Source: Bacteroides faecis (GTDB lineage: Bacteria > Bacillota > Clostridia > Oscillospirales > Acutalibacteraceae). Taken from it: a DNA stretch of 63,171 nt. The stretch spans positions 1 to 63,171 of the forward strand of contig CAVFTC010000001.1 of assembly GCA_963625295.1 (NCBI GenBank), written 5' to 3'. The first letter of the stretch is position 1, and the number at the start of each line of letters is the position of its first letter. Below are positions 28,008 to 48,125 of the stretch, in pieces. The position numbers and the translations under genes are program-made. The notes beneath the pieces were generated by a model that made no database searches, was not told the origin of the DNA, and was given only the letters and a program-made list of their open reading frames with translations.

Positions 28008-28265
28008 ATGAAAACTCGCGTCGCAGTCATGGCAATCATACTGGAATCAAAGGAAAACGCAGAGCAGCTCAACGCCGTGCTTCACGATTACCGTGAATAT
28101 ATCCTCGGCAGAATGGGTCTGCCCTACCCCAAGCATGAGATAAACATTATCAGCGTTGCGCTTGACGCTCCGCAGGATATAATCAACTCTCTTGCCGGAA
28201 AAATCGGAAGAATAGACGGAGTAAATGTTAAAACGGCATACTCGAACAACGAATACACCGTATAA
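28008..28265 (+). CDS. TM1266-family putative iron-only hydrogenase system regulator (ACT-like)
   Basis: 85 aa, colinear with Thermotoga TM1266-type proteins (...LH.Y...I.GR.G.PY......I..V.L.......I..L.GK.G.I.GV.VK). Confidence 0.75.
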   Translation: MKTRVAVMAIILESKENAEQLNAVLHDYREYILGRMGLPYPKHEINIISVALDAPQDIINSLAGKIGRIDGVNVKTAYSNNEYTV

Positions 28266-29961: not shown

Positions 29962-30046
29962 GCGGATATGGCGGAATTGGCAGACGCGTTGGATTTAGGA
30001 TCCAATATCTTCTGATGTGCAGGTTCAAGTCCTGTTATCCGCACCA
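29962..30046 (+). tRNA. tRNA-Leu (anticodon UAG), type II with long variable arm and encoded CCA
   Basis: Acceptor GCGGATA/TATCCGC, anticodon arm TTGGA-TTTAGGA-TCCAA, T-loop TTCAAGT, discriminator A, then CCA. Confidence 0.9.
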
Positions 30047-34766: not shown

Positions 34767-35849
34767 TCAGTCAAGCTTTACCTTGTATGTCCAGCCCATG
34801 TCGTCCTCAACATGACCTGTCTGCATACCGTAGAGCGTATCGTAAAGCTTCTGAGCGATCGGACCTACATTGCCGTCGGCAACCTTGTAATCCTCGCCCA
34901 TGTAATAAAGTGTGCCGATCGGAGAGATAACTGCGGCAGTACCGCTGGCAAATACCTCCTTGAGAGTGCCTGCCTTGGAGGCTGCGCATACATCGTCGAT
35001 TGAAAGGCGTCTCTCCGATACCTTTACTCCCCACTTCTTGAGAAGCTCGATGACGGACTTTCTTGTAATACCGGGAAGAATCGTACCCATAAGCGGAGCA
35101 GTGATGACCTCGTCGCCGATTACGAAGAAGGCGTTTGAAGTGCCGATCTCCTCAACATACTTATGCTCAACAGCGTCAAGCCAAAGAACATCCTTGCAGT
35201 CATGCTCCATAGCCTTTGCCGAAGCCTTCATGCCACCTGCATAGTTGCCGCCGCACTTTGCAAAGCCTGTACCGCCGACAGCCGCACGGATGAATTCATC
35301 CTCAACATAAATCCTTGTCGTGTGAAGTCCGCCGTCGTTTGCGGCATAGTAAGAACCGACGGGGCAAAGAATGATGATAAAGCGATAATGCTTTGCCGGA
35401 AGAACGCTGAACGAAACCTCGTCGCCGAAGATAAACGGTCTGATATAAAGAGCGGTTGCCGGCTCGGTGGGTATCCAATCCTTATCAACGGTAATAAGCT
35501 GGTTGATGGCGTCAAAGAAAATATCCTTTTCCATATGCGGAATACACATACGGTCATTGGTTCTGTTCATACGCTCAAAGTTCTCCTCGGGTCTGAAAAG
35601 CTGAACATCGCCCGACGGAGTTTTATATGCCTTCATGCCCTCGAACATCATCTGGGCATAGTGGAGCACGCATGAAGCGGGTTCAATGGCGATCGGCTCA
35701 TGCGGAACAATTCTTCCGTCATGCCAGCCCTGTCCCTCATCGTAGTCGATCATAAACATATGATCCGTGAAATATTTACCGAAGCCGAGCTTCTTCTGAT
35801 CCGGCTTCTCCTTCGGATGTGTTGTTCTTGTTACTGGAAATGTATACAT
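34767..35849 (-). CDS. ilvE: Branched-chain amino acid aminotransferase
   Basis: About 360 aa from the ATG at 35849 (AAAGGAG RBS). Type IV aminotransferase motifs: FGKYFTDHMF, EGMKAY, GGTG.AK.GGNYA. Confidence 0.9.
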   Translation of the reverse strand: MYTFPVTRTTHPKEKPDQKKLGFGKYFTDHMFMIDYDEGQGWHDGRIVPHEPIAIEPASCVLHYAQMMFEGMKAYKTPSGDVQLFRPEENFERMNRTNDRMCIPHMEKDIFFDAINQLITVDKDWIPTEPATALYIRPFIFGDEVSFSVLPAKHYRFIIILCPVGSYYAANDGGLHTTRIYVEDEFIRAAVGGTGFAKCGGNYAGGMKASAKAMEHDCKDVLWLDAVEHKYVEEIGTSNAFFVIGDEVITAPLMGTILPGITRKSVIELLKKWGVKVSERRLSIDDVCAASKAGTLKEVFASGTAAVISPIGTLYYMGEDYKVADGNVGPIAQKLYDTLYGMQTGHVEDDMGWTYKVKLD

Positions 35850-35881
35850 TTCTGTCGCTCCTTTCAAAGCATTCATTTTGT

Positions 35882-35917
35882 CAATGCCGCACATCTCAAT
35901 TGTGCGGATTTGCCTTA
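35882..35917. repeat. Solo MITE terminus (contains the internal CCGCACA/TGTGCGG hairpin)
   Basis: The reverse complement reads TAAGGCAAATCCGCACAATTGAGATGTGCGGCATTG. Its terminal TAA is the stop codon of the C-N hydrolase gene. Confidence 0.75.
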
Positions 35918-36721
35918 TAATTCATAGAGATCGGGTTTTCTGTCGTTGAAAACATTGATCGAGCTTCTTATATCCTTTATTATTCCGAAATCGCAGTCAG
36001 CTGTGATGACCTCCTGCGCCTCGCCTGCCGCAGCGAGCACCTCGCCCCACGGGTCGATTATCTGCGAATGACCGCCGAAAACTGCGTCCGGTGTTTTTCC
36101 GCAGGAGTTGCAGCAGACAACAAACATCTGATTTTCAATCGCTCTTGCTCTTGTGAGTGTAACGATGTGTTCCTTTCTCGCAAGAGGCCACTGCGACACC
36201 ATAAACAGCATGTCAATGCCCCTTAGGGCAAGGCTTCTGACAAGCTCGCAGAAGCGGATATCGTAGCAGATTACGACGCCGCACTTATGTCCGTCAAGCT
36301 CGAAGGTCACAAGCTTTTCGCCGAAGCTAAAATATTTGTGCTCGTCCATCGGGGTGAAAAGGTGCGTCTTGTCATATTCGGCAACGACATCGCCCTTACG
36401 GTTGAAAACAAACGCCGTGTTGTAAATCCCGCCGTTCTTTTCGTTGGCGATACTGCCGGCAACGATGTTTACATTAAGCTCCCTTGCCAACGCCGAAAAG
36501 GTCTTTTTCAGCCTCTCGCCGTCTTTGTCACAATAGCTCGAAAGATTTTCCTTGGGATAATATCCCGTCGTCCATGTTTCGGGAAGAACGATAACATCGG
36601 ATTTTTCTTTCGCTGCCGTCTCCCTTATCAGTCTGACAGCCTCGTTGTAGTTATATTCAACATCGCCGAGCTTCATATCAAGCTGAATGCAGGAAGCCTT
36701 CATTGTATTATTCATAATCAT
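35915..36721 (-). CDS. Carbon-nitrogen hydrolase (nitrilase/omega-amidase superfamily)
   Basis: Catalytic E-K-C contexts: VLPE, the Lys in YDKTHLF and the Cys in GVVICYDIRF. Alternative starts are 36739, 36715 or 36703. Confidence 0.8.
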   Translation of the reverse strand: MIMNNTMKASCIQLDMKLGDVEYNYNEAVRLIRETAAKEKSDVIVLPETWTTGYYPKENLSSYCDKDGERLKKTFSALARELNVNIVAGSIANEKNGGIYNTAFVFNRKGDVVAEYDKTHLFTPMDEHKYFSFGEKLVTFELDGHKCGVVICYDIRFCELVRSLALRGIDMLFMVSQWPLARKEHIVTLTRARAIENQMFVVCCNSCGKTPDAVFGGHSQIIDPWGEVLAAAGEAQEVITADCDFGIIKDIRSSINVFNDRKPDLYEL

Positions 36722-37247
36722 AACCTGCCTTGACAGCACCCTTGTTCACATCAAGGAGATCAAGGTGACGGGCGGAAACAACCTTCTTGAGTGCGTCATC
36801 GGTATAATCAATCGAAAACTGCGGCACTTCCTTGAGAATCTTGCCCGTGATTATCATATTCGCAAGGGTCGGCGTTCCGTTATCGTTCGCCATTTTTGTT
36901 GCAGGAATATAATATACATCAACATCTGTTCTGTCAATCTTTTTGTCGATCATTGTTGAATCAACAAAAATCTTTCCGCCGCTGACAACATCGTTTTCGT
37001 ATTTTTCAAGTGACGGAAGATTCATTGCAACAAGCACATCCGGCTTGTCAACGATTGGAGAGCCGATCGGCTCGTCGCTGATAATCACGGAGCAGTTGGC
37101 AGTGCCGCCTCTCATTTCCGGTCCGTAGGACGGAAGCCAGCTGACCTGCTTGCCCTCGATAAGTCCCTTATATGCAAGGAATTTGCCTGCAAACAGAATT
37201 CCCTGTCCGCCGAAGCCTGCGAATAACATTCTGCAAGTGCTGCTCAT
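36708..37247 (-). CDS. 2-oxoacid:ferredoxin oxidoreductase, gamma subunit
   Basis: 179 aa; the GFGGQGI motif typical of POR/KOR/VOR gamma subunits. Confidence 0.85.
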
Positions 37248-37999
37248 TTTTCTTCCTCCTTTGCATAGATATCCTTGTAAACGCCGAGAGGATAGTAAGG
37301 AATCATGTTCTCCTCTGCCCAGTCAAGAGCCTTCTGCGGAGTCATTCCCCAGTTTGTAGGGCAGGTTGAAATAACCTCAACGAGAGAAAAGCCCTTGCCC
37401 TCAAGCTGATTCTTGAATGCCTTTTTGATAGCCTTTTTAGCGTTCTTGACATTTTTTACATTGTTGACAGCAACTCTCTCAAGATATGCCGCACCGTCAA
37501 CATTTGAAAGAAGCTCGCAAACCTTAACGGGATAGCCGACGGTGTTGACATCTCTGCCGTAGGGTGAGGTCTGGGTGACCTGACCGGGAAGCGTTGTCGG
37601 AGCCATCTGACCGCCCGTCATACCGTAAATAGCATTGTTAACGAAAATAACGGTGATATTCTCCCGTCTTGCAGCGGCATGAACCGTCTCGGCAGTACCG
37701 ATAGCGGCAAGGTCGCCGTCGCCCTGATATGTGAATACAACCTTTGACGGGTCGCTTCTCTTAACGCCTGTTGCAACGGCAGGAGCACGGCCGTGAGCCG
37801 CCTGAACAAAATCACATGTGAAATAGTTATATGCCATAACAGAGCAGCCGACCGATGCGACGCCGATCGTATCACCCTCGATTCCAAGCTCATCAATTAC
37901 CTCTGCAACCAGACGGTGAATAATACCGTGAGTACAGCCGGGACAATAGTGAAGCGTTGCGTCCGTCAATGATTTCGGTTTTTCAAATACAACTGACAT
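37244..37999 (-). CDS. 2-oxoacid:ferredoxin oxidoreductase, beta (TPP-binding) subunit
   Basis: CPGCTHG, GDGD....G and [10 protein letters not shown] motifs. The start at 37999 overlaps the alpha stop (TAATG). Confidence 0.85.
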
Positions 38000-39057
38000 T
38001 ATTCTGCACCTCCGTTTGACATGATAGCCGAAAGAACATCCTCCGGCGTCGGGATCATTCCGCCGACACGGTTGCAAAGCTCAACCGGTCTTTTGCAATC
38101 GATCGCAAGCTTCACATCGTCGATCATCTGACCCATGTTCATTTCAACAGTTATAAATCTCTTGCACTTCTCGGCAGCAGCCTTGAGCGGCTTTGTCGGG
38201 AACGGCCAGAGCGTGATCGGTCTTATCATGCCGACCTTGACGCCTCTCTTGCGTGCCTCATTGACTGCGTTCTTTGCCACACGGGCGGTGATACCGAACG
38301 CAACAACGCAAACCTCGGCGTCCTCCATGAGATATTCCTCGTACATCGTTTCGTTTTCTTCGATCGTCTTATATTTCTGATATCTCTCGAAATTCTTTAT
38401 TTCAAGCTCCTCGGGCTTGAGGTAAAGCGAATTGACTATGTTATGCTCTCTCTCACACTTTGTGCCGGTGAGTGCCCACGGCTTTTCAACCGGAGTTACC
38501 TCGGCAACATCGAGGGAAACCGGCTCCATCATCTGACCCATTGTGCCGTCGGCAAGGATCATTGCAACCATTCTGTATTTATCCGCAAGCTCAAAGCCCT
38601 TGACGGTGAGGCTTGCCATTTCCTGAACGGAAGCCGGTGCAAGTACGATATTGTGGTAATCGCCGTGTCCGCCACCCTTTGTTGACTGCCAGTAATCCGA
38701 CTGTGAGGGCTGAATTCCGCCGAGTCCGGGGCCGCCACGCTGAACATTGACCACGAGTGCGGGAAGGTCGCAGCCGGCGAGATATGAAATACCCTCGCTT
38801 TTAAGCGAAACTCCGGGGCTGGAGGAGGAGGTCATGACTCTCTTGCCTGTTGACGAAACGCCGATAACCATGTTGATTGCAGCGATCTCGCTCTCCGCCT
38901 GCAGGAATGTTCCGCCGATCTTCGGCATACGCTTTGACATGTAAGCCGCAACCTCTGTCTGCGGAGTTATGGGATAACCGAAGTAATGTCGGCAGCCTGC
39001 TCTGATAGCAGCCTCGGCAATTGCTTCGTTGCCTTTCATAAGTACTTTATCTGACAT
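37999..39057 (-). CDS. vorB: 2-oxoacid:ferredoxin oxidoreductase, alpha subunit (VorB-like)
   Basis: [36 protein letters not shown]-terminus typical of VorB/KorA-type alpha subunits. The longer track ORF runs into the ferredoxin gene. Confidence 0.8.
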
Positions 39058-39062
39058 TTTCT

Positions 39063-39269
39063 TCACCTCTCTACCGTAATAACACAATCGGGGCACATTG
39101 TAGCGCAGAAGGCGCATCCGATACACTTTTCCTGTTCCGTCACAACTGCGGGATGATGTCCCTTGTTGTTCAAAGTCGTCTCTGACAAATGAACTATTCC
39201 CTTGGGACAAGCGTTCACGCAAAGTCCGCAGCCCTTGCAAAGGTCTGTTTTGAATGTTACTTTAGCCAT
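39063..39269 (-). CDS. 2x[4Fe-4S] ferredoxin (delta subunit)
   Basis: Two CxxCxxCxxxCP motifs in 68 aa. Confidence 0.9.
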   Translation of the reverse strand: MAKVTFKTDLCKGCGLCVNACPKGIVHLSETTLNNKGHHPAVVTEQEKCIGCAFCATMCPDCVITVER

Positions 39270-39281: not shown

Positions 39282-39938
39282 CTAATTTATTTTCGCCTGT
39301 AGGGTAAGCGGAAGCATATTGCTCACTCGCCCGTACAGCTCTTTATAAAGCGTCTTTTTTACGGTAGTCATCGCAACGGGAAGCCCCGTAAGCTTTGAAA
39401 CCTCATCGGCATATTTGAGCGAATCAAGAACATCCTGAGCGGTCGTCTCCTCGCCGAGATTTGAGTTGTTTATTATAGCCGTAAATTTCATTGAACCGGC
39501 TTTTTCGATTTCATTCATGACCTCAAGGGTGCTGTAAGCGTCCCTTGTCAGCGGTCTGTACATGTTTATTACAAGAAACATCTCATAGTCGTTTTCCCGT
39601 ACTATGCTTTCGGAATAGCGGCCGAGAGCGTATGCGCCTCTGTCGTCGCCGCCGATATCCATAACAGCGTATTCCGTGCGGTCGTCAATGACAGAATATA
39701 TATCCTGCGGCAGCGAGGGAAGATCAACATTTGAGCTTGCAAAGTCCGAGCAGATAAGTCTTATCCCGGCGGCTTTAAGCTCCTTTTCGCTGTCCTTGGT
39801 TCTGAAATACGGGTTGACGATATCCAAATCCGCAACAGCCACCTCAAGACCCTGCTGTCTGAGCTTAAAAGCGTAATTGACCGCTATATTCGTTTTTCCG
39901 CTGCCGTAATGACCGGCAAAAAGCGTTATGCGCTTCAT
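39282..39938 (-). CDS. MinD/ParA/CooC-like P-loop ATPase
   Basis: Deviant Walker A GHYGSGKTN; 218 aa; first gene of the oxidoreductase operon. Confidence 0.7.
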   Translation of the reverse strand: MKRITLFAGHYGSGKTNIAVNYAFKLRQQGLEVAVADLDIVNPYFRTKDSEKELKAAGIRLICSDFASSNVDLPSLPQDIYSVIDDRTEYAVMDIGGDDRGAYALGRYSESIVRENDYEMFLVINMYRPLTRDAYSTLEVMNEIEKAGSMKFTAIINNSNLGEETTAQDVLDSLKYADEVSKLTGLPVAMTTVKKTLYKELYGRVSNMLPLTLQAKIN

Positions 39939-40000: not shown

Positions 40001-40020
40001 ATCTTTAATATCTAATCGGT

Positions 40021-40330
40021 GTGCCAAACCTTAGGATAAATTGTTCAGCGTGCGTCGAGTTCAAGGCGACAGGCTGACGCAACTATGTGTATTGCTAAGT
40101 CTGTCAACGCAGAAATCGGCGTACCAAACCTTAGGATAAATTGTTCAAGGTGCGTCGAGTTCAAGGCAACAGGCTAACGCAATACTATGTGTATTGCTAA
40201 GTCTGTCAACGCAGAAATCGGCGTGCCAAACCTTAGGATAAATTGTTCAGGGTGCGTCGAGTTCAAGGCGACAGGCTGACGCAATACTATGTGTATTGCT
40301 AAGTCTGTCAACGCAGAAATCGGCGTGCCA
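40021..40330. repeat. Three head-to-tail ~101-bp direct repeats plus a 6-nt partial fourth unit
   Basis: Units at 40021-40120, 40121-40222 and 40223-40324. Unit 1 vs unit 3 differ by 1 substitution and a 2-nt indel; unit 2 vs unit 3 differ by 4 substitutions. Each unit holds a ~17-bp imperfect hairpin. Confidence 0.95.
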
Positions 40331-40338: not shown

Positions 40339-42609
40339 TTACAGCTGATTACGGATGATTTTGCCGCTTATAGTCTTTGGAAGCTCGTCCTTGAACACAA
40401 CGATTCTCGGGTACTTGTAAGGAGCGGTGTGCTTCTTAACATAGTTCTGAATTTCTTTTTTAAGCTCCTCGGTCGGCTCTGTGCCCTTGGTAAGGACAAT
40501 GGAAGCCTTGACGACCTGTCCTCTTACCTCGTCGGGAGCAGCGGAAACGCCGCACTCAAGAACATAAGGAAGCTCCATGATAACATTTTCGATCTCGAAC
40601 GGTCCGATACGGTAGCCGGACGATTTGATAACATCGTCGATACGGCCGACATACCAGAAATATCCGTCCTCATCACGCCATGCGATATCGCCCGTGTGAT
40701 AAACGCCGTCGTGCCAAACCTCGTCTGTACGATCCTGATTTCTGTAGTAGCCGAGGAATATACCGCACGGTACTTTCTCGGAAGTGTTGACGCAGATTTC
40801 ACCGGTTTCACCGATATCCGCTTCCGTTCCGTCGGGACGAAGAATCTTGATGTCGTAAAGCGGCGTCGGCTTGCCCATTGAGCCGGGCTTCGGAGTCATT
40901 CCGGTGAGCGTTGCTATTCCAAGAGTCATCTCCGTTTGACCGAAGCCCTCCATAAGCTCAAGTCCGGTAGCATTATAGAACTGGCGGAATACCTCCGGGT
41001 TAAGTGCCTCACCGGCTGTTGTTGCGTGACGGATAGAGGAAAGATCGTACTTTGCGAGATCCTCCTTTATCATCATTCTGTACATCGTCGGAGGTGCGCA
41101 GAATGTTGTGATGTTATATTGCTTGAACATCGGAAGAATATCCGACGCATCGAAGCGGTCGAAGTTATATACAAATACTGCGCCCTCGCAGAGCCACTGT
41201 CCGTAGAGCTTGCCCCAAAGAGCCTTGCCCCAGCCGGTGTCGGAGATTGTAAGGTGAAGTCCGTCCTTGCTTACGCAGTGCCAATATTTAGCGGTGATAT
41301 AGTGTCCGAGCGGATATTTGTAGGAATGGGTTGCGATTTTCGGATAGCCCGTTGTGCCGGAGGTGAAGAACATAAGCATCGGATCGTTTCCGCACGGTGC
41401 GTCCTCTTCCCTTCTGTATCTTCTGGAGAACAGGCTGTATTCGCTGTCGAAGCTGTGCCAGCCCTCACGCTCGCCGCCGACAATGATTTTGTTGACGAGA
41501 GTATGCGTCTTTGCGTCGGCGATGTCAACCTGATGAGCGGTGTCGCCGTCGGCTGTGCAAAGAATTGTCGTTACTCCTGCCGCCTCAAATCTGTACTCAA
41601 AGTCATGGTCAACAAGAAGATTCGTTGCCGGAATTGCGATTGCGCCGATCTTATGAAGCGCAAGGATTGCAAACCAGAACTGATAATGACGCTTGAGAAC
41701 AAGCATTACCCTGTCGCCCTTCTTTATGCCGAGCGACTTGAAGTAGTTGGCCGCCTGTGCCGAGTGCTCCTTGACATCCTTAAATGTGAAGATGCGTTCC
41801 GTCTTATCGCGGTCAACATGAACGAGTGCACGCTTGTCAGGGGATTTTTTTGCAATTTTATCAACGATATCAAAAGCGAAGTTGAATTCATCCTCATGAT
41901 TAAAATCAATGGAAACAAGATTTCCGTTTTCGTCCTCTGTTGCGTCAATAAACTTCTCGCAAACATAGCTGCCCTTTGCCTTTACGCCCTTGACAGCTCT
42001 TTCGTGAACGATATTCGTTACCGTATCATCACTTGCCATGACCATCGCAAGGAAGAGACAATCCCTGCCGTCGATGGCAACCATTCCGTGAGGCGTTGAG
42101 GAGTTATAATAAATGCTGTCGCCCTCGTTAAGAATCTCCTCATGATTTCCGACTCTTACTCTCAGTGAACCGCTGATAACGATATCGAACTCCTGACCAC
42201 CGTGAGTTACGGTGCTTATCGGTTTATTTTCAAGCTCCGCGTCATACTCGTATCTAACCCAGTACGGCTCGGAAAGCTTTTTTCTGAAATTCGGTGCAAG
42301 GTTTTTGATTTCGATTCCGTTCTCGCTGGCGGTGATCTGACCCTTGCCCAGTCTTGTAACGGTATAGGATGAAAGCACGGCGCTGTGACCTTCAAGAAGA
42401 TCCGTAATGCCAATGTCAAAAGCAAGTGCACACTTGTGAATAAAAGTGAAAGGAAGGTCAACCGTTCCGCTCTCATAGAGCCTGTAGGTTTCAACAGAGA
42501 CTTCAGACTTCTCCGCCATTTCCTCAACGGTAAAGCCGCATATGTCTCTCATTTCCTGGATACGCTCAGCAACCTCATAAAGCTTGTTTGATTCGTTTTG
42601 ATTTGACAT
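40339..42609 (-). CDS. XRE-HTH + cupin domain fused to an AMP-forming medium-chain acyl-CoA synthetase
   Basis: N-terminal ~190 aa: HTH (ICGFTVEEMAEKSEVSVETYRLYESG) and cupin (GQEFDIVISGSL...YYNSSTPHGM). Remainder: ACSM/MacS-like ligase (MFFTSGTTGYPK, YGQTE, YHTGD, SGKIIR). Confidence 0.85.
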   Translation of the reverse strand: MSNQNESNKLYEVAERIQEMRDICGFTVEEMAEKSEVSVETYRLYESGTVDLPFTFIHKCALAFDIGITDLLEGHSAVLSSYTVTRLGKGQITASENGIEIKNLAPNFRKKLSEPYWVRYEYDAELENKPISTVTHGGQEFDIVISGSLRVRVGNHEEILNEGDSIYYNSSTPHGMVAIDGRDCLFLAMVMASDDTVTNIVHERAVKGVKAKGSYVCEKFIDATEDENGNLVSIDFNHEDEFNFAFDIVDKIAKKSPDKRALVHVDRDKTERIFTFKDVKEHSAQAANYFKSLGIKKGDRVMLVLKRHYQFWFAILALHKIGAIAIPATNLLVDHDFEYRFEAAGVTTILCTADGDTAHQVDIADAKTHTLVNKIIVGGEREGWHSFDSEYSLFSRRYRREEDAPCGNDPMLMFFTSGTTGYPKIATHSYKYPLGHYITAKYWHCVSKDGLHLTISDTGWGKALWGKLYGQWLCEGAVFVYNFDRFDASDILPMFKQYNITTFCAPPTMYRMMIKEDLAKYDLSSIRHATTAGEALNPEVFRQFYNATGLELMEGFGQTEMTLGIATLTGMTPKPGSMGKPTPLYDIKILRPDGTEADIGETGEICVNTSEKVPCGIFLGYYRNQDRTDEVWHDGVYHTGDIAWRDEDGYFWYVGRIDDVIKSSGYRIGPFEIENVIMELPYVLECGVSAAPDEVRGQVVKASIVLTKGTEPTEELKKEIQNYVKKHTAPYKYPRIVVFKDELPKTISGKIIRNQL

Positions 42610-42651: not shown

Positions 42652-42947
42652 AACAAAAAATCCGTCCCAAAGTCATTAGAACTTTGAGACGGATTTGAAT
42701 ATCCGCGGTACCACTCAAATTGCGATCTGCTATTGCTTCTCGCCTCTCTGCAGGATCTGACAATCCCTCAACACTGACGTAGTTGTCACGGGAGAAACTA
42801 CTGTAGTTTTCATCTCTCCGGCTCGGAAGTGATGGGCTTTACATTTACCTCGCTATCGGCTCGCACCAAACGCCGACTCTCTGAAAGGACATAAACGCAA
42901 CCGTCTTCGTCACAGCCTTTGTTTCAACAGGTTATTTGTACCTGTTG
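42652..42947 (-). promoter_or_regulatory. T-box riboswitch leader, putative Ile (AUC) specifier
   Basis: Minus strand shows a K-turn (TGACGAAG / CTTCCGAGCC), AGAGAG bulge, distal loop GGTGCGA, T-box AATTTGAGTGGTACCGCGG (42703-42721) and the terminator TCCGTCTCAAAG...CTTTGGGACGGA + TTTTTT. Confidence 0.85.
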
Positions 42948-42953
42948 CGGTAC

Positions 42954-42982
42954 ATTATAAGATACTTTTCACAATTTTTCAA
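42954..42982 (-). promoter_or_regulatory. Promoter of the T-box(Ile) leader
   Basis: On the minus strand: TTGAAA, 17 nt, TATAAT. Confidence 0.7.
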
Positions 42983-42991: not shown

Positions 42992-43009
42992 TGTAATATA
43001 AGTATTACA
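42992..43009. promoter_or_regulatory. Palindromic operator candidate TGTAATA-N4-TATTACA
   Basis: Perfect 7-bp inverted repeat 9 nt upstream of the -35. An identical motif with identical spacing lies at 47278-47295. Confidence 0.6.
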
Positions 43010-43019
43010 TTGTGTAATG

Positions 43020-45518
43020 TTACGCAGTTACAACAGAATTTGCCTTTTGCAGTCCGTATTTCTTGATTGCGTCCTCACGCATCTTGTATTTAAGAATCTT
43101 ACCGGCAACATTCATCGGGAACTCGGACACAAAGTCAATGTACTTCGGCACTTTATGCTTCGCCATATGAGAAAGAACATAGTCCTTCATCTCCTGCTCG
43201 GTCATGGTTTCGCCCTCCTTGAGGATAATGCAAGCCATTATCTCCTCGCCGAGTCCCTCGTCGGGAACGCCGATTACCTGAACATCCTTGACCTTCGGGT
43301 GGGTGTAAATGAACTCCTCAATCTCCTTGGGATAGATATTCTCGCCGCCACGGATAATCATATCCTTAAGTCTGCCTGTGATTCTGTAGTTGCCCTCCGG
43401 AGTGCGGCACGCAAGGTCGCCGGTATGAAGCCAGCCGTCCTTGTCGATTGCGCTTGCCGTAGCCTTCGGCATTTTATAGTAACCCTTCATGATGTTGTAT
43501 CCACGGGCAACGAACTCACCGGTCACATTGTCCGGGCATTCAAGACCCGTATCGGGGTCAACGATTTTACATTCGATTTTCGGAAGCGGATGACCGACAG
43601 TAGCCACACGATCCTCCAGCGGGTCGTCAGTGCTGCTCATCGTACAGCCCGGAGATGATTCCGTCTGACCGTAAACGATTGTGATTTCGGTCATATGCAT
43701 TTTTTCGACAACCTCACGCATCTTTGAGATCGGACACGGCGAGCCTGCCATGATACCCGTTCTCATGTATGAAAAATCGGTCTTTTCAAAGTCGGGGTGC
43801 TGTAGCATTGCGATAAACATCGTCGGAACGCCGTGGAAAGCCGTTATACGCTCGGAATTTATACACGCAAGCGATGATTTCGGCGAGAAATACGGTAATG
43901 GGAGAGCCGTTCCGCCGTGGGTCATGATGGCAGTCATGGCAAGAACCATGCCGAAGCAATGGAACATCGGAACATGGATCATCATTCTGTCCGCCGTTGA
44001 AAGATCCATTCTGTCGCCGATACACTTACCGTTGTTTACGACATTGTAGTGGGTAAGCATAACGCCCTTCGGGAAGCCTGTTGTACCGGAGGTGTACTGC
44101 ATATTGCATACATCGTCCCTCCTGACAAGAGAAGCCATTCTGTAGACCTCCTCGACAGGAACCTCGCTCGACTTGTCAACCGCCTGCTCCCATGTCATAC
44201 AGCCCTGCTGCTCATAGCCGACCGTAATAATATTTCTCAAAAACGGCAATCTCTTTGCGTGGAGCTTTTCGCCGCTCTTGGTGCTTTCCAGCTCAGGGCA
44301 AAGCTCAGCCATGATCTCGTCATAGTGTGAGTCTCTGTAGCCCTTTATCATAATCAGCGTATGAGTATCCGACTGTCTGAGCAGATATTCCGCCTCGTGA
44401 ATTTTATATGCCGTGTTCATTGTAACAAGAACAGCGCCGATTTTGGTGGTCGCCCAAAACGAAATATACCACTGCGGAACATTGGTTGCCCAAACGGCAA
44501 CATGAGAGCCGGCTTTTACGCCCATTGCAATAAGCGCTCTCGCAAAGGTATCAACATCGTCACGGAACTGCGCATATGTTCTCGTATAGTCAAGCGTTGT
44601 ATATTTGAATGCAAGCTGATCGGGAAACTCCTCAACCATTCTGTCAAGAACCTGCGGGAATGTCTCCTCGATAAGCTCCTCTTTTTTCCAGATGAATTTG
44701 CCTGTATGGGTCTTGTTGTAGTAGTATTTCTTCTTGCTTGTCTCGTCCGCAACAGTCTCCATAAAGCTCTCATAATGAGTCAAAATGATTTCAAGATCGT
44801 CTATCGACTCGAACCACTCGGGATTCCATTCAACGCAAACAAAGCCGTTGTAATTTATCGAGCCGAGAGCATTCATCATGTCCTTGATAGGCATTGCGCC
44901 CTCGCCGATGAGAGTGTGCTCGCCTGCCTTCACGGCGTCGGTCAGATGGACAAGCTTGACATATGCGCCAAGGTTGGTAATGGTCTTTTCCGAATCCTCG
45001 CCGCCGACGAAGTATGTTTCATACATATTCCAATCTGCGCCGATAAAGTCGCTTGCAAAATAGTTCATCAAATCGCAGAGCCTTGTCGTGTCGGCAAAAA
45101 TGCCCGTCGTTTCGACAAGGACGATAACATTGTGCTTTTCGCCCTCTGCGATAGCCTTGCCGATGAACTCAAGCGCCTTTTCGTAAGCGTCTTCGCCACC
45201 CTCAACATAGAGCTTGACATAGGGAATGTTTATGTTGCTTGCAACGGTGATAGCCGAGTTCATTTTTTCAATATTTTCGTCGGAATTATCTGCGGCGTTG
45301 CAGTTTGAATTTATGCAAACTATGCTCTTTTTCGAGTTGATGAGCTTTCTTTTGGTTGCCGAAGCCATGTCAGGATTAAACGGTGAGGTTCTGCCTGAAA
45401 ACATTGCGTCACGAAAATCGTGGATCTCAACTCCGCCGTATTTCAGCTCATCCGCCATATTGAGAAAGTCATCAAAGCTTTTATTCTTATGAAATCTTGT
45501 AGAAAAAGCTAATTTCAC
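43020..45518 (-). CDS. Xylose-isomerase-like TIM-barrel domain fused to an AMP-dependent acyl-CoA ligase
   Basis: N-terminal ~270 aa resemble AP-endonuclease-2 / sugar-phosphate-isomerase TIM barrels. The C-terminal ~560 aa are a FadD-type ligase (MQYTSGTTGFPKGVMLTH, YGQTE, LHTGD, AGKILK). GTG start with a GGAGGG RBS, 2 nt after the upstream stop. Confidence 0.8.
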   Translation of the reverse strand: MKLAFSTRFHKNKSFDDFLNMADELKYGGVEIHDFRDAMFSGRTSPFNPDMASATKRKLINSKKSIVCINSNCNAADNSDENIEKMNSAITVASNINIPYVKLYVEGGEDAYEKALEFIGKAIAEGEKHNVIVLVETTGIFADTTRLCDLMNYFASDFIGADWNMYETYFVGGEDSEKTITNLGAYVKLVHLTDAVKAGEHTLIGEGAMPIKDMMNALGSINYNGFVCVEWNPEWFESIDDLEIILTHYESFMETVADETSKKKYYYNKTHTGKFIWKKEELIEETFPQVLDRMVEEFPDQLAFKYTTLDYTRTYAQFRDDVDTFARALIAMGVKAGSHVAVWATNVPQWYISFWATTKIGAVLVTMNTAYKIHEAEYLLRQSDTHTLIMIKGYRDSHYDEIMAELCPELESTKSGEKLHAKRLPFLRNIITVGYEQQGCMTWEQAVDKSSEVPVEEVYRMASLVRRDDVCNMQYTSGTTGFPKGVMLTHYNVVNNGKCIGDRMDLSTADRMMIHVPMFHCFGMVLAMTAIMTHGGTALPLPYFSPKSSLACINSERITAFHGVPTMFIAMLQHPDFEKTDFSYMRTGIMAGSPCPISKMREVVEKMHMTEITIVYGQTESSPGCTMSSTDDPLEDRVATVGHPLPKIECKIVDPDTGLECPDNVTGEFVARGYNIMKGYYKMPKATASAIDKDGWLHTGDLACRTPEGNYRITGRLKDMIIRGGENIYPKEIEEFIYTHPKVKDVQVIGVPDEGLGEEIMACIILKEGETMTEQEMKDYVLSHMAKHKVPKYIDFVSEFPMNVAGKILKYKMREDAIKKYGLQKANSVVTA

Positions 45519-45520: not shown

Positions 45521-46936
45521 TTAACCCTCCTCGTATGCTATCTTGTTCAGTGCGCTGACATATGCACGGATGCTTGCGCCGATAATATCTGTCGAAATGC
45601 CTGTTCCGGAATAGAGCTTTCCGGTCGAGCTTCTGAGCTTAACGAGCGCATGACCCATGGCCTCACGACCCTCGGTAACGGCTTGAATCTGGAAATCGTC
45701 CAGCTCGTAGTGATGTCCGATAATCTGCTCGATTGCAAGAAACGCCGCATCAATCGGACCGTCTCCGACGCTCACACCGCTGACCACCGTGCCATCCTTG
45801 ACAAGCTTGATGTTAGCGGTTGCGGTAATAATGTTACCGCTGTTGATAACATAGCTTTCAATCGAATAGCTTGAGGGAACCTGCAATGCGGAGGAGGCTA
45901 TAATTACTTCAAGCTCCTTTGTGCCGACAAAGTCCTTCTTAACGGCAACACGCTTGAACGCCTCATAAACATTTGAATTATCCTCGGGAGAAAGGTCGTA
46001 GCCGATTTTTTTAACCGCCTTTATAACGGTTGCTATCGTGTCGTTTTTATCAAGAGTGAGGCTCTCGCCGTCCTCGTTTACACCTGTTTCAAACGGCGTA
46101 TTCTCACTCTTGGAGGTGTTGAGCATTCTTTTTATTTGACCCGTAACACGCTGAAGCTCTGTCGTCCTTATCTTGCTTGAGGCCTTTATAGAATCACCTC
46201 TGAGGGTGAATATCTTCATGATTTTTTCAACCGTCGGGAAGTTGAAATTGTCTGCCGTAACCTTGATCTGCGACGCTCCGGCTTCGATTGCGGCGAATGC
46301 GGAGGCGGAGGCCATGTTCATTGAGTCAACGACCTCAACGCCGACCGTAGCATTCTTGGCGGACGGAACATTCTCAAAAATATCCGAGATAAAGCCGCCG
46401 AATTCGGACGGGAACATCGTACCCTCGGAGTCGCAAACAGTGACCCTCGTTGCGCCTGCCTTTATCGCTTCTTCTATCGCCTGATACAGGAACGGTCTTT
46501 CGGCTCTCACTGCGTCCTCAGCCGAGAATTCAATGCTGTCGGTGTACTTTTTGCACTCGGTGATAAGCTCTGTTACCATGCTCATCACCACCGGCGGCTT
46601 TTTGCCGCACTTGAACTCCATCTGAACCGCAGACATCGGGAGAGAAACCTTAAGAGAAAACTTCTTTGCACCCTTTGCGCAGTTATAAGCCGTTTCAACG
46701 CCCGCCGCATCATAACCAACATCAACGGCGATTTCCGAATGCTTCATAAGCGAAGCGATCGTTTTTATAAGAAGAACATCGGTTGATGTGTTCTTTATTT
46801 TCGGCATCTCGATGATATCGCAGTGCAGCTTGTCCATCTGCTTTGCGATCTCGATCTTCTCCTTAAAGCTTAAGGAATGGCTGGCTGACGACTCGCTTTC
46901 TCTGAGCGTCACATCGGATAAAATTACTTTTCTCAT
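45521..46936 (-). CDS. 2-isopropylmalate-synthase homolog (HMGL-like TIM barrel + LeuA regulatory domain) with degenerate catalytic motifs
   Basis: 471 aa from the ATG at 46936 (AAAGGAG RBS). Colinear with LeuA, but DTTLRDGEQ is SDVTLRESES, HTHxD is VEVVD and GIGERAGN is ADNFNFPT. The C-terminal LeuA-dimer-like domain is intact. Confidence 0.8.
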   Translation of the reverse strand: MRKVILSDVTLRESESSASHSLSFKEKIEIAKQMDKLHCDIIEMPKIKNTSTDVLLIKTIASLMKHSEIAVDVGYDAAGVETAYNCAKGAKKFSLKVSLPMSAVQMEFKCGKKPPVVMSMVTELITECKKYTDSIEFSAEDAVRAERPFLYQAIEEAIKAGATRVTVCDSEGTMFPSEFGGFISDIFENVPSAKNATVGVEVVDSMNMASASAFAAIEAGASQIKVTADNFNFPTVEKIMKIFTLRGDSIKASSKIRTTELQRVTGQIKRMLNTSKSENTPFETGVNEDGESLTLDKNDTIATVIKAVKKIGYDLSPEDNSNVYEAFKRVAVKKDFVGTKELEVIIASSALQVPSSYSIESYVINSGNIITATANIKLVKDGTVVSGVSVGDGPIDAAFLAIEQIIGHHYELDDFQIQAVTEGREAMGHALVKLRSSTGKLYSGTGISTDIIGASIRAYVSALNKIAYEEG

Positions 46937-46959: not shown

Positions 46960-47233
46960 AAAAAAACAAAGTCCCGGAAGTATTCAAACTTCCGGGACGA
47001 TAAAACATGTTTACCGCGGTACCACCCGCATTGCCTAAACGGCCTCTTCGGATTCTGACAAATCCTAAGCTGTGATAACGGTGCTTGCCGTAGCTCCTTA
47101 TACAGTAAAGACGGTTGGGGAGCTCTGCTCGGATACGAGACAGCAATTAAATTTCCATATCGGCTCACACCTACCGCCGACTCTCTGAAATCAGAAATAA
47201 AACGCTTAATATCTTCAACGCATTTCAAATATT
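46960..47233 (-). promoter_or_regulatory. T-box riboswitch leader, putative Leu (CUC) specifier
   Basis: Minus strand shows a K-turn (GCGTTGAAGATA / TATCCGAGCA), AGAGAG bulge, distal loop GGTGTGA, T-box GCGGGTGGTACCGCGG (47014-47029) and the terminator GTCCCGGAAG...CTTCCGGGAC + TTTGTTTTTTT. Confidence 0.85.
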
Positions 47234-47239: not shown

Positions 47240-47268
47240 ATTATAGTAAACTTTTTTTAATTTGTAAA
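47240..47268 (-). promoter_or_regulatory. Promoter of the T-box(Leu) leader
   Basis: On the minus strand: TTTACA, 17 nt, TATAAT. Confidence 0.7.
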
Positions 47269-47277: not shown

Positions 47278-47295
47278 TGTAATATTTGTATTACA
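47278..47295. promoter_or_regulatory. Palindromic operator candidate TGTAATA-N4-TATTACA (second copy)
   Basis: Perfect 7-bp inverted repeat 9 nt upstream of the -35, with the same geometry as 42992-43009. Confidence 0.6.
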
Positions 47296-47303
47296 AAATG
47301 TAA

Positions 47304-48125
47304 TTACTTCAAAAGCTCCGCATTGAGCGTTTTTCCGTAAGCTGTTGCGGCATTGACAAGACCCTCATCGGGAATCGTCTGCATAATGGGCTTGCCGGTG
47401 CTGAGAATTCTGCAATAGATCTCCGCTGATTTCTCGATTGTATGCATAAGACCGAAGGCTGCGTCAAATGTGTTGCCCGATACAAAAAGTCCGTGGTGCG
47501 CCCATACGATGGCGTCGTATTTCTTTTGAAGCTCGCAGGTCTTGTGAGCTATCTCCGCTCCGCCGGGAATCATCCATTCAACAACGCCGACGCCGTTCGG
47601 GAAAATGATCGGGCACTCCGTCATGCTCTCCCAGAGAACTCTTGAGAAAGCCTCGGAGGTAAGCGGAAGAACAAATGTGAGAGCGATAATGTTAACGGGA
47701 TGGGCATGGTAGATAACTCTGCAAGCGCCGTCCGTTGCCGCAACACGAACGCTGTGGTTCATGAAATGGGTCGGGAACTCGCTTGTCGGGCCGCCGCCGT
47801 TAACAAGACCCCATACGATTCTGTAGCCGTCGCCTGCGTCGTTGATTTCAAGAATGCACATATTTGCCGCCGGATCTCTGATAACATTCTGGAAGAACTT
47901 ACCCGTACCCGTTACCATGAAATACTCATTTTTAAGGTTGTCCGCCTGAACGCCGAGATCAACCCACGGCCTGTCATATGTAAAGTAAGGCTTGCAAGCC
48001 TCTACCTCTTCGGCTGTCATACGGTAGGAAAGGTTTCCGCCGTTGCCCTCATGCCAGCCCTGCTCATAGCCGTCGTTGCAGGTAAGAGCAAACTTTTTGA
48101 TTACATCAAGATCCAAAATACTCAT
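47304..48125 (-). CDS. rhaD: Rhamnulose-1-phosphate aldolase (class II aldolase)
   Basis: 273 aa, colinear with E. coli RhaD: GW.E.NGGNL, VTG.GKFF.NV..DPAAN, PTSE.P.HF, HAHP.N.IALT, HGLF..G. Confidence 0.85.
   Translation of the reverse strand: MSILDLDVIKKFALTCNDGYEQGWHEGNGGNLSYRMTAEEVEACKPYFTYDRPWVDLGVQADNLKNEYFMVTGTGKFFQNVIRDPAANMCILEINDAGDGYRIVWGLVNGGGPTSEFPTHFMNHSVRVAATDGACRVIYHAHPVNIIALTFVLPLTSEAFSRVLWESMTECPIIFPNGVGVVEWMIPGGAEIAHKTCELQKKYDAIVWAHHGLFVSGNTFDAAFGLMHTIEKSAEIYCRILSTGKPIMQTIPDEGLVNAATAYGKTLNAELLK

Follow-up and report, generated by a model that had tools for sequence, protein, structure and literature searches.

An isoleucine T-box operon that opens with an XRE-like HTH-cupin module fused to a predicted 2-methylbutyrate-CoA ligase

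Organization of the Locus

The window, that is, the whole stretch of 63,171 nucleotides analysed, contains two neighbouring operons, one behind an Ile and the other behind a Leu T-box leader (Table 1). The Ile operon opens with an ATG-initiated gene of 756 aa, in which a helix-turn-helix (HTH) domain, a cupin and an acyl-CoA ligase are joined, whereas the Leu operon carries a second fused ligase gene, whose pairing with a LeuA-like gene was found to be conserved across loci. T-boxes turn genes on when the cognate tRNA is uncharged. The Ile T-box ascribed to the fusion gene in a first-pass annotation was borne out by Rfam RF00230 and by AUC followed by A at the specifier position; its score, specifier, UGGUACCGCG sequence and terminator are all those of an Ile T-box, and the AUC specifier was read in 42/42 decoded orthologous leaders. 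Similarly, CUC was read in all 11 decoded orthologous leaders of the Leu-type (third) ligase. Downstream of the fusion gene, the 2-oxoacid:ferredoxin oxidoreductase belongs to the VorB subfamily, with an alpha subunit above the NF005507 cut-off and adjacent beta, gamma and Fer4 genes, and the order ligase, P-loop protein, ferredoxin, oxidoreductase alpha, beta and gamma, (amidase) and IlvE recurs in dozens of loci. Anaerobic gut hosts were assigned to the related loci from the record titles. The tandem repeat that follows the fusion gene reaches 5.2 copies in one related locus (L001).

Table 1. Features of the Ile and Leu T-box operons, listed in the direction of transcription.
Feature	Position	Strand	Basis or remark
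Second operator-like site (putative), ATTACA-N3-TGTAATACAAATATTACA	47278..47304	.	Phylogenetic footprint; palindrome 47278-47295
Leu operon promoter, TTTACA-17-TATAAT	47240..47268	-	
T-box leader, specifier CUC (Leu)	46990..47227	-	Rfam, 94.9 bits
Divergent LeuA-like protein (HMGL-like + LeuA_dimer)	45521..46936	-	Below every isopropylmalate synthase cut-off
Second fused ligase, 832 aa, candidate isovalerate-CoA ligase	43020..45518	-	Xylose-isomerase-like TIM barrel + fatty-acid-CoA-ligase-family enzyme
Operator-like site (putative), ATTACA-N3-TGTAATACTTATATTACA	42992..43018	.	Phylogenetic footprint in L001, L086, L088
Sigma-70-type promoter of the Ile operon, TTGAAA-17-TATAAT	42954..42982	-	11/12 matches
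T-box leader, specifier AUC (Ile)	42682..42922	-	Rfam RF00230, 103.2 bits, gathering score 93
Intrinsic terminator of the Ile T-box leader	42658..42696	-	17-pair stem then T-run
Fusion gene, predicted 2-methylbutyrate-CoA ligase with XRE-like HTH + cupin head	40339..42609	-	ORF, Pfam, PDB 3etc, full-length homologs
HTH domain, residues 13-74, five-helix XRE fold, net charge -9	42388..42573	-	Pfam HTH_3, AF2 helices, net charge
Cupin barrel, residues 90-191, invariant H136/E140/H174	42037..42342	-	Pfam Cupin_2, invariant columns, HppE alignment
Cupin-to-ligase linker, ~26 residues (192-217), poorly conserved	41959..42036	-	Alignments, few invariant positions
Ligase part, residues 218-756 + stop codon, core motifs intact	40339..41958	-	Alignments, PDB 3etc, motifs
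102-nt tandem repeat, 3.1 copies, between fusion gene and next gene	40014..40330	.	
CbiA/MinD-like P-loop protein	39282..39938	-	Conserved between ligase and ferredoxin genes; no NCBIfam match
2x[4Fe-4S] ferredoxin (delta-type subunit)	39063..39269	-	
2-oxoacid:ferredoxin oxidoreductase alpha, VorB type	37999..39057	-	NCBIfam NF005507, 545.7 bits, cut-off 399; Pfam POR_N, PFOR_II
Oxidoreductase beta subunit (TPP-binding)	37244..37999	-	
Oxidoreductase gamma subunit	36708..37247	-	
Carbon-nitrogen hydrolase, amidase of Nit/omega-amidase kind	35915..36739	-	
Branched-chain amino acid aminotransferase IlvE	34767..35894	-	NCBIfam NF009897, 465 bits, cut-off 307

Architecture and Distribution of the Fusion Protein

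The first-pass annotation had read an XRE-type HTH, a cupin and a MacS/ACSM-type acyl-CoA synthetase in a single frame, and this architecture, with its exact gene boundaries, was confirmed by the ORF check of the window and by Pfam, which identified HTH_3 (residues 17-71; 24.5 bits against a gathering score of 23), Cupin_2 (residues 135-188; 39.4 bits against 27.2), AMP-binding (residues 251-622, E 1.9e-63) and AMP-binding_C (residues 672-750, E 7e-21). An assembly artefact or frameshift at the cupin-ligase junction, raised there as a concern, was ruled out by the recurrence of the same continuous ORF in hundreds of independent assemblies. The proposed XRE-cupin character of the N-terminal module also held, with end-to-end homology to stand-alone XRE-cupin proteins of ~190 aa (33-47% identity) and an XRE-type HTH followed by a cupin in Pfam, in the AF2 model and in the match to 1y9q, although the module is not a free-standing protein of ~180-200 aa but is joined to a 540-aa ligase. 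The AF2 model of the module (pLDDT 89.6) places the HTH helices at residues 2-24, 28-34, 39-46, 54-64 and 68-73 (pLDDT 87-98). The full-length AlphaFold model (pLDDT 61, pTM 0.56, cupin below 40) was built on a shallow alignment of 72-95% identical sequences and is for that reason uninformative on module-ligase docking.

The same architecture of ~755 aa was found, among the matches listed, in at least 120 protein clusters from NCBI, ENA, Logan and JGI assemblies at 72-95% identity, and a relative matched through the linker is encoded in at least 508 species-representative genomes. The best 80 loci of these genomes comprised 70 with a complete ORF of 734-811 aa and intact A3 and A10 motifs, 7 in which the ORF was cut by the contig end and 3 with a complete ORF that was truncated or N-terminally short (L003, L047 and L072), the first of which encodes 737 aa with both motifs intact. 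In other genera, the module occurs as a separate gene; five such stand-alone relatives were examined, each followed after 3-124 nt by a ligase gene of ~550 aa in the same orientation. In these loci, the free-standing form is always directly upstream of the ligase gene. Alignment of one split ligase (L081) with the fused ligase gave 60% identity from residue 218 on. A single Ile T-box precedes the module-ligase pair in two of the three split loci tested with Rfam. No oxidoreductase adjoins the Ile T-box and ligase in the split loci, so the acyl-CoA may also serve other ends there.

A paralogous fusion sits behind a Val T-box, with a GUA or GUC specifier in 25/25 decoded leaders. The Ile-type and Val-type paralogs are told apart by G461 and G476, the former being changed to alanine in the TGWGK stretch of the Val-type ligase. 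None of the positions that distinguish them lies in the recognition helix. The N-terminal module contains eight such positions, mostly with conservative changes, and so the comparison does not point to a particular cupin ligand.

Ligase Half and Predicted Pathway

The assignment to the MacS/ACSM type was upheld by PDB 3etc, the Macs enzyme of M. acetivorans, which matches residues ~239-754 at E 1.6e-193, as well as by Pfam and the core motifs TSGTTGYPK, GFGQTE, YHTGD, GRIDDVIKSSGYRIGPFEIE and PKTISGK. Judged against the ANL motifs (P-loop TSGTTGxPK, YxxGD, GRxDD..K..G.RI and the catalytic Lys in PKTxSGK), the protein belongs to the Macs/ACSM branch, with both AMP-binding domains and with core motifs that are also present in 70 of the 80 loci. 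The best-scoring NCBIfam model was MbcS (NF047394; 432.4 bits), which stays below its equivalog cut-off of 850. The preferred substrate of Macs was reported to be 2-methylbutyrate (PMC10455477), which fits the Ile T-box of the fusion gene; from this similarity and the T-box, 2-methylbutyrate is predicted to be the substrate here.

Gut anaerobes are known to build Ile from 2-methylbutyrate and Leu from isovalerate, both of them branched-chain volatile fatty acids (PMC10658910). The presence of ferredoxin, the VorB-type oxidoreductase and IlvE downstream of the ligase suggests that the operon most likely makes Ile from 2-methylbutyrate. The opposite, catabolic direction (Ile degradation) was rejected, the ligase being AMP-forming and the T-box being on when tRNA-Ile is uncharged.

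N-Terminal Module and Candidate Operators

The recognition helix of the HTH is SVETYRLYE (residues 38-46), acidic and variable across the family. The domain has an overall charge of -9 (mean of the family, -7.7), compared with about -2 to +5 for six DNA-binding XRE domains; net charge is an indirect argument on DNA binding. Acidic residues (E40 and D51) occupy positions that read DNA in 434 repressor, and the family is acidic or variable there. The most conserved HTH surface is the near-invariant helix 4 and not helix 3, which varies even among close orthologs. Together, these features make DNA binding by the N-terminal part of the fusion doubtful, and a classical operator-binding repressor is the less likely description of the module, despite the fact that, among the XRE-cupin proteins studied so far, most bind DNA and repress metabolic genes next to their own (PMC7901475).

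In the cupin, the invariant residues H136, E140 and H174 match the Fe(II) ligands H138, E142 and H180 of HppE in the alignment (PMC7916636), giving a 2-His-1-Glu triad in a cupin that follows an HTH-like domain. Foldseek placed HppE chains at the top (E 4.5e-13) and the regulator-annotated 1y9q second, the two being ranked equally, whereas the profile search gave 1y9q as the best match (E 2e-9) and matched HppE over its whole length. The identity to HppE in the Foldseek alignments is only 17-20%, and the closest relatives of the module are annotated as regulators, not enzymes. No phosphonate genes, the context of HppE, were found in the window or in related loci.

Two 18-bp palindromes of the form TGTAAT-N6-ATTACA, described in the first-pass annotation as paired operators flanking the fusion gene, proved to be real and conserved but not flanking, since both lie 5' of the gene on the coding strand, one in its own promoter region (42992-43009) and the other 4.3 kb further upstream, in the promoter region of the neighbouring Leu T-box operon. 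The gap to the -35 box is 9 nt in each case, and both are centred about -54 (-62 to -45) of their T-box promoters. They are the sole matches in the window at up to two mismatches (0.12 expected), and in four related genomes the half-sites are invariant and the spacers free. The palindrome is restricted to a narrow clade of at least 82% protein identity; of the 80 representative loci searched, all of which keep the module, 79 lack it. No family-wide operator or clade-specific replacement was found when the 80 loci were scanned for the palindrome, all promoter regions were inspected and the several T-box promoters of single genomes were compared for common inverted repeats. The one further repeat that seemed to be shared, TTTTTG-N10-CAAAAA, was discarded, since a single site between two divergent genes had been counted twice. 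Inverted repeats upstream of the -35 box were in excess (18 observed against 4.6 expected), but, as they consist mostly of A/T tracts and were compared with a mononucleotide-shuffled control, this enrichment was not relied on. In a scan, CodY boxes were in no more than modest excess, with none in the clade of this DNA. As for other local regulators that might recognize the palindrome, NrdR, TetR-family, OmpR-type and DUF4364 genes are present in the window, none of them in or next to the two operons, in which the HTH of the fusion gene is the sole DNA-binding-type domain encoded. The palindromes are best regarded as putative sites through which the Ile and Leu promoters receive a further transcriptional input, distinct from the module and confined to this clade.

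Proposed Function and Alternatives

The fusion protein is very probably a 2-methylbutyrate ligase that starts Ile salvage. It would be the first, ATP-spending enzyme of the route, in which 2-methylbutyrate, a fermentation acid, would be converted to 2-methylbutyryl-CoA by the MacS-type ligase; reductive carboxylation by the VorB-type oxidoreductase with ferredoxin would then yield 2-oxo-3-methylvalerate, and transamination by IlvE would yield isoleucine, with uncharged tRNA-Ile gating transcription of the whole unit through the T-box. The HTH-cupin module appears to have long been a dedicated companion of this line of ligases: in most genera the two are fused, and in some the module is a co-transcribed gene of its own. 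It would most likely serve as a small-molecule-sensing and/or assembly part that acts on the ligase itself, probably in a metal-dependent manner through the His/Glu/His site, and it could mediate feedback by the end product or the 2-oxoacid. This sensing role, rather than DNA binding, is favoured tentatively, and the explanation as a whole, an Ile-salvage ligase with a ligand-sensing or assembly module, is considered to have about an even chance of being right.

The best surviving alternative, although an unlikely one, is a trigger enzyme comparable to BirA, in which a dimer of the fusion protein would bind TGTAAT-N6-ATTACA in a ligand-gated manner and tune initiation on top of T-box attenuation, the signals being the levels of branched-chain acid, acyl-adenylate or amino acid. 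The HTH_3 score above the Pfam threshold and the end-to-end homology to a family whose members act as local repressors and bind palindromes in dimeric form (PMC7901475) point in this direction, as do the palindromes themselves, with their invariant half-sites and free spacers in four genomes and identical -35 spacing at both linked promoters, and the lack of any other regulator gene inside the two operons. In addition, a DNA-binding acyl-CoA ligase has a precedent in FadD1 (PMC12754631), and a divergent relative (P0169) that has lost the ligase motifs keeps the module, with an HTH charge of -3 and S/Q in the helix. Against this stand the extreme acidity of the HTH, with E40 and D51 facing DNA, the variation of helix 3 among close orthologs and the missing palindrome in 79/80 loci that keep the module. 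The genomes that retain the palindrome share the helix V[ST]VE[TQ]Y[RK][LI]YE[SA]G and those without it differ, but with only a handful of genomes this match is inseparable from shared ancestry. Moreover, the site lies at -62 to -45, whereas characterized operators of the family are located between -20 and +10, overlapping the core promoter (PMC12724383), and the placement of module and enzyme under one T-box, fused or split, suits a subunit better than a regulator. A BirA-like version, in which the head would sit at both the Ile and Leu promoters with its occupancy set by the ligand of the ligase or cupin (branched-chain acid, acyl-adenylate, 2-oxoacid or amino acid), is rated as rather unlikely. 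The trigger enzyme of the first-pass annotation is partly supported; it stands as regards architecture, MacS type, T-box and palindromes, and is weakened by the acidic HTH, the lack of a shared operator and the likeness to HppE; the two-layer control suggested with it remains plausible, the second layer being more likely control of the enzyme than of transcription.

A role like that of MbcS in Staphylococcus, in which 2-methylbutyryl-CoA from the ligase would chiefly prime anteiso branched-chain fatty acids instead of feeding Ile synthesis, is improbable; the Ile T-box would in that case reflect the loss of the Ile-derived primer in Ile limitation. MbcS is the best NCBIfam model, and in the split loci no oxidoreductase gene stands next to the ligase behind the Ile T-box; nevertheless, the MbcS cut-off is not reached, the genes for the VorB-type oxidoreductase, ferredoxin and IlvE run in the same direction as the ligase gene in this locus and in most others, and the three ligases have specifiers for three different amino acids, which fits amino-acid supply better than lipid supply. 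Most improbable is a catalytic cupin, namely an HppE-like metal enzyme that adds a step on the acid, acyl-CoA or 2-oxoacid and uses the HTH-like domain for oligomerization, since the HppE matches in Foldseek and along the whole profile, the invariant triad and the metal-dependent-isomerase-type fold (xylose-isomerase-like TIM barrel) at the N-terminus of the Leu-type ligase are offset by the low identity to HppE, by closest relatives annotated as regulators, by a three-step route that needs no extra reaction, by anaerobic hosts, in which an oxygen-dependent reaction of the HppE type is unlikely, and by the Val-type paralog, which keeps the module with an achiral substrate, isobutyrate, so that the cupin is not an epimerase for the chiral centre.

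Significance and Comparison with Known Systems

Branched-chain fatty acids have long been known to act as growth factors for anaerobes of the rumen and gut. A literature search found no paper on this gene set, on T-box control matched to the amino acid or on the fused ligases, and no description of branched-acid genes or their control in the large uncultured Oscillospirales/Christensenellales groups. The locus suggests a compact and testable set consisting of three ligases, each with a T-box specifier matching its product (Ile, Val or Leu), one oxidoreductase and one transaminase. If confirmed, it would make it possible to recognize, by annotation, genomes that can convert isoacids to amino acids, which matters for ruminant nutrition and gut cross-feeding. 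The HTH-cupin partner, fused or split, is conserved in over 500 species as a hitherto unstudied accessory to an adenylate-forming enzyme and would represent either a new allosteric or assembly module of regulator fold or a new trigger enzyme, both of which would be informative on the reuse of regulator folds; were the trigger reading true, one protein would couple precursor availability to initiation, and the T-boxes tRNA charging to elongation.

The XRE-cupin factors PsdR, PauR, ErfA, DbuR and 1Y9Q share with the fusion the order of HTH and cupin and a module size of ~190 aa, and they are linked to neighbouring metabolic genes and have palindromic operators of 15-25 bp (PMC7901475, PMC12724383). 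They are free-standing and bind at -20 to +10, whereas the module described here is fused to, or co-transcribed with, one enzyme, is strongly acidic and has no family-wide operator, its sole candidate site lying at -62 to -45. HppE shares the two-domain fold (HTH-like plus cupin) and the positions of the Fe(II) ligands, and its third helix is likewise acidic (ETPETVAAWENGE); it is, however, an oxidase of the fosfomycin pathway, whereas the fusion locus lacks phosphonate genes and its hosts are anaerobes. Macs (PDB 3ETC) resembles the ligase half over the whole enzyme but is archaeal and lacks the HTH-cupin module, and we know of no T-box or oxidoreductase context for it.

BirA, which is also adenylate-forming, as well as NadR, PutA and the archaeal RbkR, combine a catalytic and an N-terminal DNA-binding-type domain in one chain, as the fusion does. 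RbkR has been described in PMC5397151. For these four proteins, DNA binding and co-conserved operators have been demonstrated, while the operator evidence for the fusion is comparative and comes from one narrow clade. FadD1, an acyl-CoA ligase from Pseudomonas aeruginosa for which promoter binding and a response to a fatty-acid signal were reported (PMC12754631), differs in having no HTH, its binding being ascribed to a leucine-zipper-like motif inside the ligase, and in being a long-chain enzyme without a T-box. A chemical parallel is the reductive carboxylation of rumen and gut anaerobes, in which the same chemistry as that predicted here leads from acid to acyl-CoA, 2-oxoacid and amino acid. 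The conversion of branched-chain volatile fatty acids to amino acids by this reaction is known from classic rumen work.

Architecture and Distribution of the Fusion Gene

The gene was found exactly at the position given in the first-pass annotation, with a GGAGG ribosome-binding site ahead of its ATG, and the proposed union of helix-turn-helix (HTH), cupin and acyl-CoA synthetase in one ORF was borne out, all four Pfam domains lying in a single frame. Among the matches listed from a search of 5.8 billion proteins, at least 120 protein clusters showed 72–95% identity to the fusion, all of about 755 aa and all with the precomputed Pfam set HTH, Cupin_2, AMP-binding and AMP-binding_C; their sources were NCBI, ENA, Logan and JGI assemblies, and 'AMP-binding protein' and 'acyl-CoA synthetase' were the only names given to them. 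More distant full-length fusions (37–46% identity) were retrieved by an exhaustive HMMER search with fusion residues 1–241. When one genome per species was scanned with an alignment of fusion N-termini including the linker, at least 508 species genomes were found to encode a relative, the best 80 loci belonging to gut and rumen MAGs of Oscillospirales and Christensenellales. In seven of these 80 the ORF was interrupted by a contig end and in three (L003, L047 and L072) it was complete but truncated or N-terminally short, the A3 and A10 motifs being intact in L003 (737 aa). In the remaining 70 the ORF was complete, at 734–811 aa, and both the P-loop and the catalytic-lysine motif were intact; this recurrence of a continuous full-length ORF across independent assemblies answered the earlier concern about the junction and showed the fusion to be real and widespread.

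The 95%-identical ortholog, L001, was deposited as 'uncultured Coriobacteriaceae bacterium'; every other relative belongs to the Clostridia (Acutalibacteraceae, Oscillospiraceae and Christensenellaceae), so the name probably reflects an error in binning or naming. The TM1266-like regulator gene of the window fits an anaerobic Clostridia host. Upstream of the fusion locus, the metagenomic contig of L087 carries a gene for a reverse transcriptase fused to Cas1 and then cas2 (590–2745).

Features of the window and domains of the fusion protein
Feature	Position	Strand	Details
NrdR repressor gene	1248–1709	+	
TM1266-like putative iron-only hydrogenase system regulator	28008–28265	+	
tRNA gene (one)	29962–30043	+	
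Branched-chain aminotransferase IlvE		-	Above equivalog cut-off (465 vs 307)
Carbon-nitrogen hydrolase	35915–36739	-	Nit/omega-amidase kind; between oxidoreductase gamma subunit and IlvE
2-Oxoacid:ferredoxin oxidoreductase, alpha/beta/gamma		-	Alpha above NCBIfam VorB cut-off (545.7 vs 399)
Ferredoxin		-	2x[4Fe-4S]; downstream of P-loop gene
CbiA-like P-loop protein	39282–39938	-	CbiA/MinD-like, 218 aa; first gene after fusion; no NCBIfam match
Fusion gene	40339–42609	-	ATG start, 756 aa
HTH_3	Residues 17–71		Pfam, 24.5 bits (threshold 23)
Cupin_2	Residues 135–188		Pfam
AMP-binding	Residues 251–622		Pfam
AMP-binding_C	Residues 672–750		Pfam
Terminator closing Ile leader	42696–42658	-	17-pair stem and T-run
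Ile T-box leader	42922–42682	-	Rfam, 103.2 bits (threshold 93)
Ile operon promoter			TTGAAA-17-TATAAT, near-consensus
Palindrome, Ile promoter	42992–43009		
TIM-barrel-ligase fusion	43020–45518	-	832 aa; xylose-isomerase-like TIM barrel (AP_endonuc_2) and fatty-acid-CoA-ligase-family enzyme
LeuA-like protein	45521–46936	-	LeuA_dimer (leucine-binding) domain kept; below every isopropylmalate-synthase cut-off
Leu T-box leader	47227–46990	-	Rfam; specifier CUC then G; ahead of LeuA-like and TIM-barrel-ligase genes
Leu operon promoter			TTTACA-17-TATAAT, near-consensus
Palindrome, Leu promoter	47278–47295		

T-Box Control and the Proposed Isoleucine Pathway

The Ile T-box claimed in the first-pass annotation was confirmed by Rfam directly upstream of the fusion, with the specifier AUC followed by A (both window specifiers were taken from Rfam's alignment). 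An AUC specifier was found in all 42 decoded leaders of the copy most like the window fusion. Transcriptional control of the fusion is supplied by this T-box, the element being observed and its function read from established T-box knowledge. T-boxes turn downstream genes on when their cognate tRNA is uncharged, and the Ile operon should therefore increase isoleucine supply.

The MacS-type assignment of the ligase half also stood, with a match to PDB 3etc at E 1.6e-193; this structure is that of the Methanosarcina acetivorans enzyme Macs, which prefers 2-methylbutyrate as substrate (PMC10455477). The fusion gene is followed downstream, on its own strand, by genes for a P-loop protein, a ferredoxin, the oxidoreductase, a carbon-nitrogen hydrolase and the branched-chain aminotransferase, an order that recurs in dozens of related loci. 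The route from acid to acyl-CoA and, by reductive carboxylation, to amino acid is classic in rumen anaerobes. The simplest reading of the Ile operon is such a chain, in which 2-methylbutyrate would be activated to 2-methylbutyryl-CoA, reductively carboxylated to 2-oxo-3-methylvalerate and converted to isoleucine, and the fusion protein is very probably the committed ligase of this salvage pathway. The use of 2-methylbutyrate for isoleucine and of isovalerate for leucine is on record (cited in PMC10658910).

The carbon-nitrogen hydrolase, found at the same place in several relatives and replaced by an Amidohydro_2 gene in L087, could serve to clear 2-oxoglutaramate, should glutamine be the amino donor. 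In nearly all loci the CbiA/MinD-like gene separates the ligase gene from that of the ferredoxin. Between the fusion and the P-loop gene, the window operon contains a 102-nt tandem repeat (40014–40330, 3.1 copies, 94% matches), each unit with a promoter-like TTGACA-16-TAGTAT site and a 7-bp hairpin (GCAATAC...GTATTGC); its RNA fold is only weakly better than that of shuffled sequence (z = -2.1), and it is present in 5.2 copies in L001 and absent from L086–L089 (intergenic gaps of 0–129 nt).

Split Genes and Counterparts Behind Val and Leu T-Boxes

Many free-standing HTH-cupin proteins of about 185 aa were also found by exhaustive HMMER search (33–47% identity, aligned over fusion residues 9–191). 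Five of the closest were examined, among them the proteins from the cultured Hydrogenoanaerobacterium saccharovorans, Ligaoa zhengdingensis and Zongyangia hominis, and in all five the module gene lay 3–124 nt upstream of a co-oriented AMP-binding gene of about 550 aa. The one split ligase aligned (L081) was 60% identical to the fused ligase, the alignment beginning at residue 218. Of three split loci searched with Rfam, two had a single T-box with an AUC specifier ahead of the pair. As the module adjoins the same ligase whether split or fused, module and ligase lineage belong together, under the same tRNA-Ile sensor.

In many genomes a second, paralogous HTH-cupin-ligase directly follows the first; the window holds the Ile-type copy only. 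The specifier was GUA or GUC (Val) in all 25 decoded leaders of the paralog, one of which was confirmed in Rfam's own alignment; tandem copies behind such a Val T-box were seen in L004, L005 (8635–10900), L009, L012 and many others. In the ligase, Ile-type and Val-type copies are told apart by only two positions, G461A and G476A. In acetyl-CoA synthetases the equivalent of G461, which comes after the Trp in TGWGK, lines the acyl pocket; with a bulkier residue the pocket would suit isobutyrate, the smaller acid.

All 11 decoded leaders of the LeuA-like/TIM-barrel-ligase pair read CUC (Leu). The pair is a candidate arm leading from isovalerate to leucine. Its LeuA-like member has TLRESE near the N-terminus, where the canonical isopropylmalate synthase motif is LRDGEQ, and might be a leucine-sensing partner. 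In about 34 of the 80 loci the pair is a conserved neighbour of the fusion.

Palindromes at the Ile and Leu Promoters

The paired operator-like sequences noted earlier do exist as two exact TGTAATA-N4-TATTACA palindromes, the sole window matches at up to two mismatches (0.12 expected). They do not flank the fusion gene, as had been stated; each lies upstream of a promoter, that of the Ile or the Leu operon, preceded by a third half-site (ATTACA-N3) and with its end exactly 9 nt from the -35 hexamer, which places its centre near -54. Among the 80 representative loci the palindrome was found only in L001, and the footprint set was extended with loci of homologs at 90, 84, 82 and 77% identity. 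TGTAAT-N6-ATTACA upstream of the Ile promoter was kept in four genomes, the window, L001 (95% protein identity), L086 (90%) and L088 (82%), with the spacers ACTTAT, GGCGAT, GTAGTC and AAATGC, respectively. The Leu-promoter site was also kept in the window (ACAAAT), L001 (ATCAAT) and L086 (GCCTAT, with one mismatch, the right half-site being ATTACT). The palindrome decays with divergence: L087 (84%) keeps only ATTACA-N3-TGTAAT and L089 (77%) one half-site, and L002 has none. At the Leu T-box promoter of L088 (about 1100–1180), a different perfect inverted repeat, TAGACAAAA-N6-TTTTGTCTA, stands in its place. With half-sites invariant and fixed in distance and spacers free to vary, the palindromes look like the site of a dimeric protein and were therefore accepted, on this footprint, as functional sites within a narrow clade only.

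The fusion itself is a candidate binder, having the sole DNA-binding-type domain inside the two operons and a similar recognition helix in the genomes that keep the site, although this match is inseparable from shared descent, hundreds of species have the module without any such site, and the site position is atypical for XRE-cupin regulators. Good matches to the CodY box (AATTTTCWGAAAATT) lie just upstream of the -35 box in some T-box promoters of other clades, perfect in L080 (about 5600) and with one mismatch in L042 (about 5600); at up to two mismatches they were found in four promoters (L080, L042, L052 and L059; about one expected), and none in the window's clade. This hints that upstream input to the T-box promoters may differ between lineages.

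Role of the HTH-Cupin Module

The AlphaFold model of the module (pLDDT 89.6) shows a five-helix XRE domain and a cupin; that of the full-length fusion was too poor to read any docking of the module on the ligase. Foldseek ranked two matches to the module equally, HppE, an enzyme (E 4.5e-13), and 1y9q, which is annotated as a regulator (E 8.7e-13); the module family profile aligned to the whole length of HppE. The HTH-like domain of HppE is not known to bind DNA. The invariant H136, E140 and H174 of the module fall on the Fe(II) ligands H138, E142 and H180 of HppE (PMC7916636). The HTH-cupin is tentatively regarded as a partner dedicated to the ligase, serving in ligand sensing or assembly and probably dependent on a metal.

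The trigger enzyme of the first-pass annotation, with the HTH-cupin as a DNA-binding regulator, is possible but rather unlikely. The module passes the Pfam HTH_3 threshold and is confidently modelled as an XRE domain plus cupin, and XRE-cupin proteins that have been characterised act as local repressors, binding palindromes of 15–25 bp as dimers (PMC7901475, PMC12724383). Against this, besides the equal match to HppE, the HTH net charge is -9 in the window fusion (family means -7.7 in fusions and -5.4 in free-standing relatives), compared with about -2 to +5 in six DNA-binding XRE domains. Aligned to 434 repressor, the base-reading and phosphate-touching positions hold the conserved E40, the invariant D51 and small variable residues; among orthologs of 72–95% identity, residues 39, 41, 43 and 44 of helix 3 vary while the following helix 4 stretch, DLPFTFIHKCALAF, is almost invariant. 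In the paralog comparison, no position distinguishing Ile from Val copies was found in the recognition helix. Catalysis by the cupin is less likely still and was judged improbable.

In P0169, a divergent 758-aa fusion, the P-loop, the Asp of YxxGD and the catalytic Lys are gone and the ligase motifs are degenerate (no TSGTTGxPK; FHTGT; IECFGYRI; KDANGV); the module is kept, its HTH far less acidic (-3) and with Ser/Gln in helix 3. The P0169 sequence speaks for a regulatory role of the fusion independent of catalysis, and it may be a pseudo-enzyme turned regulator.

Relation to Known Systems

In the literature search, no description was found of the fused HTH-cupin-ligase architecture and its split counterpart, of its consistent T-box control or of a ligase triad matched to three amino acids. 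The system is relevant to amino-acid metabolism in gut and rumen and to the reuse of regulator folds, and every part of it is a member of a known family.
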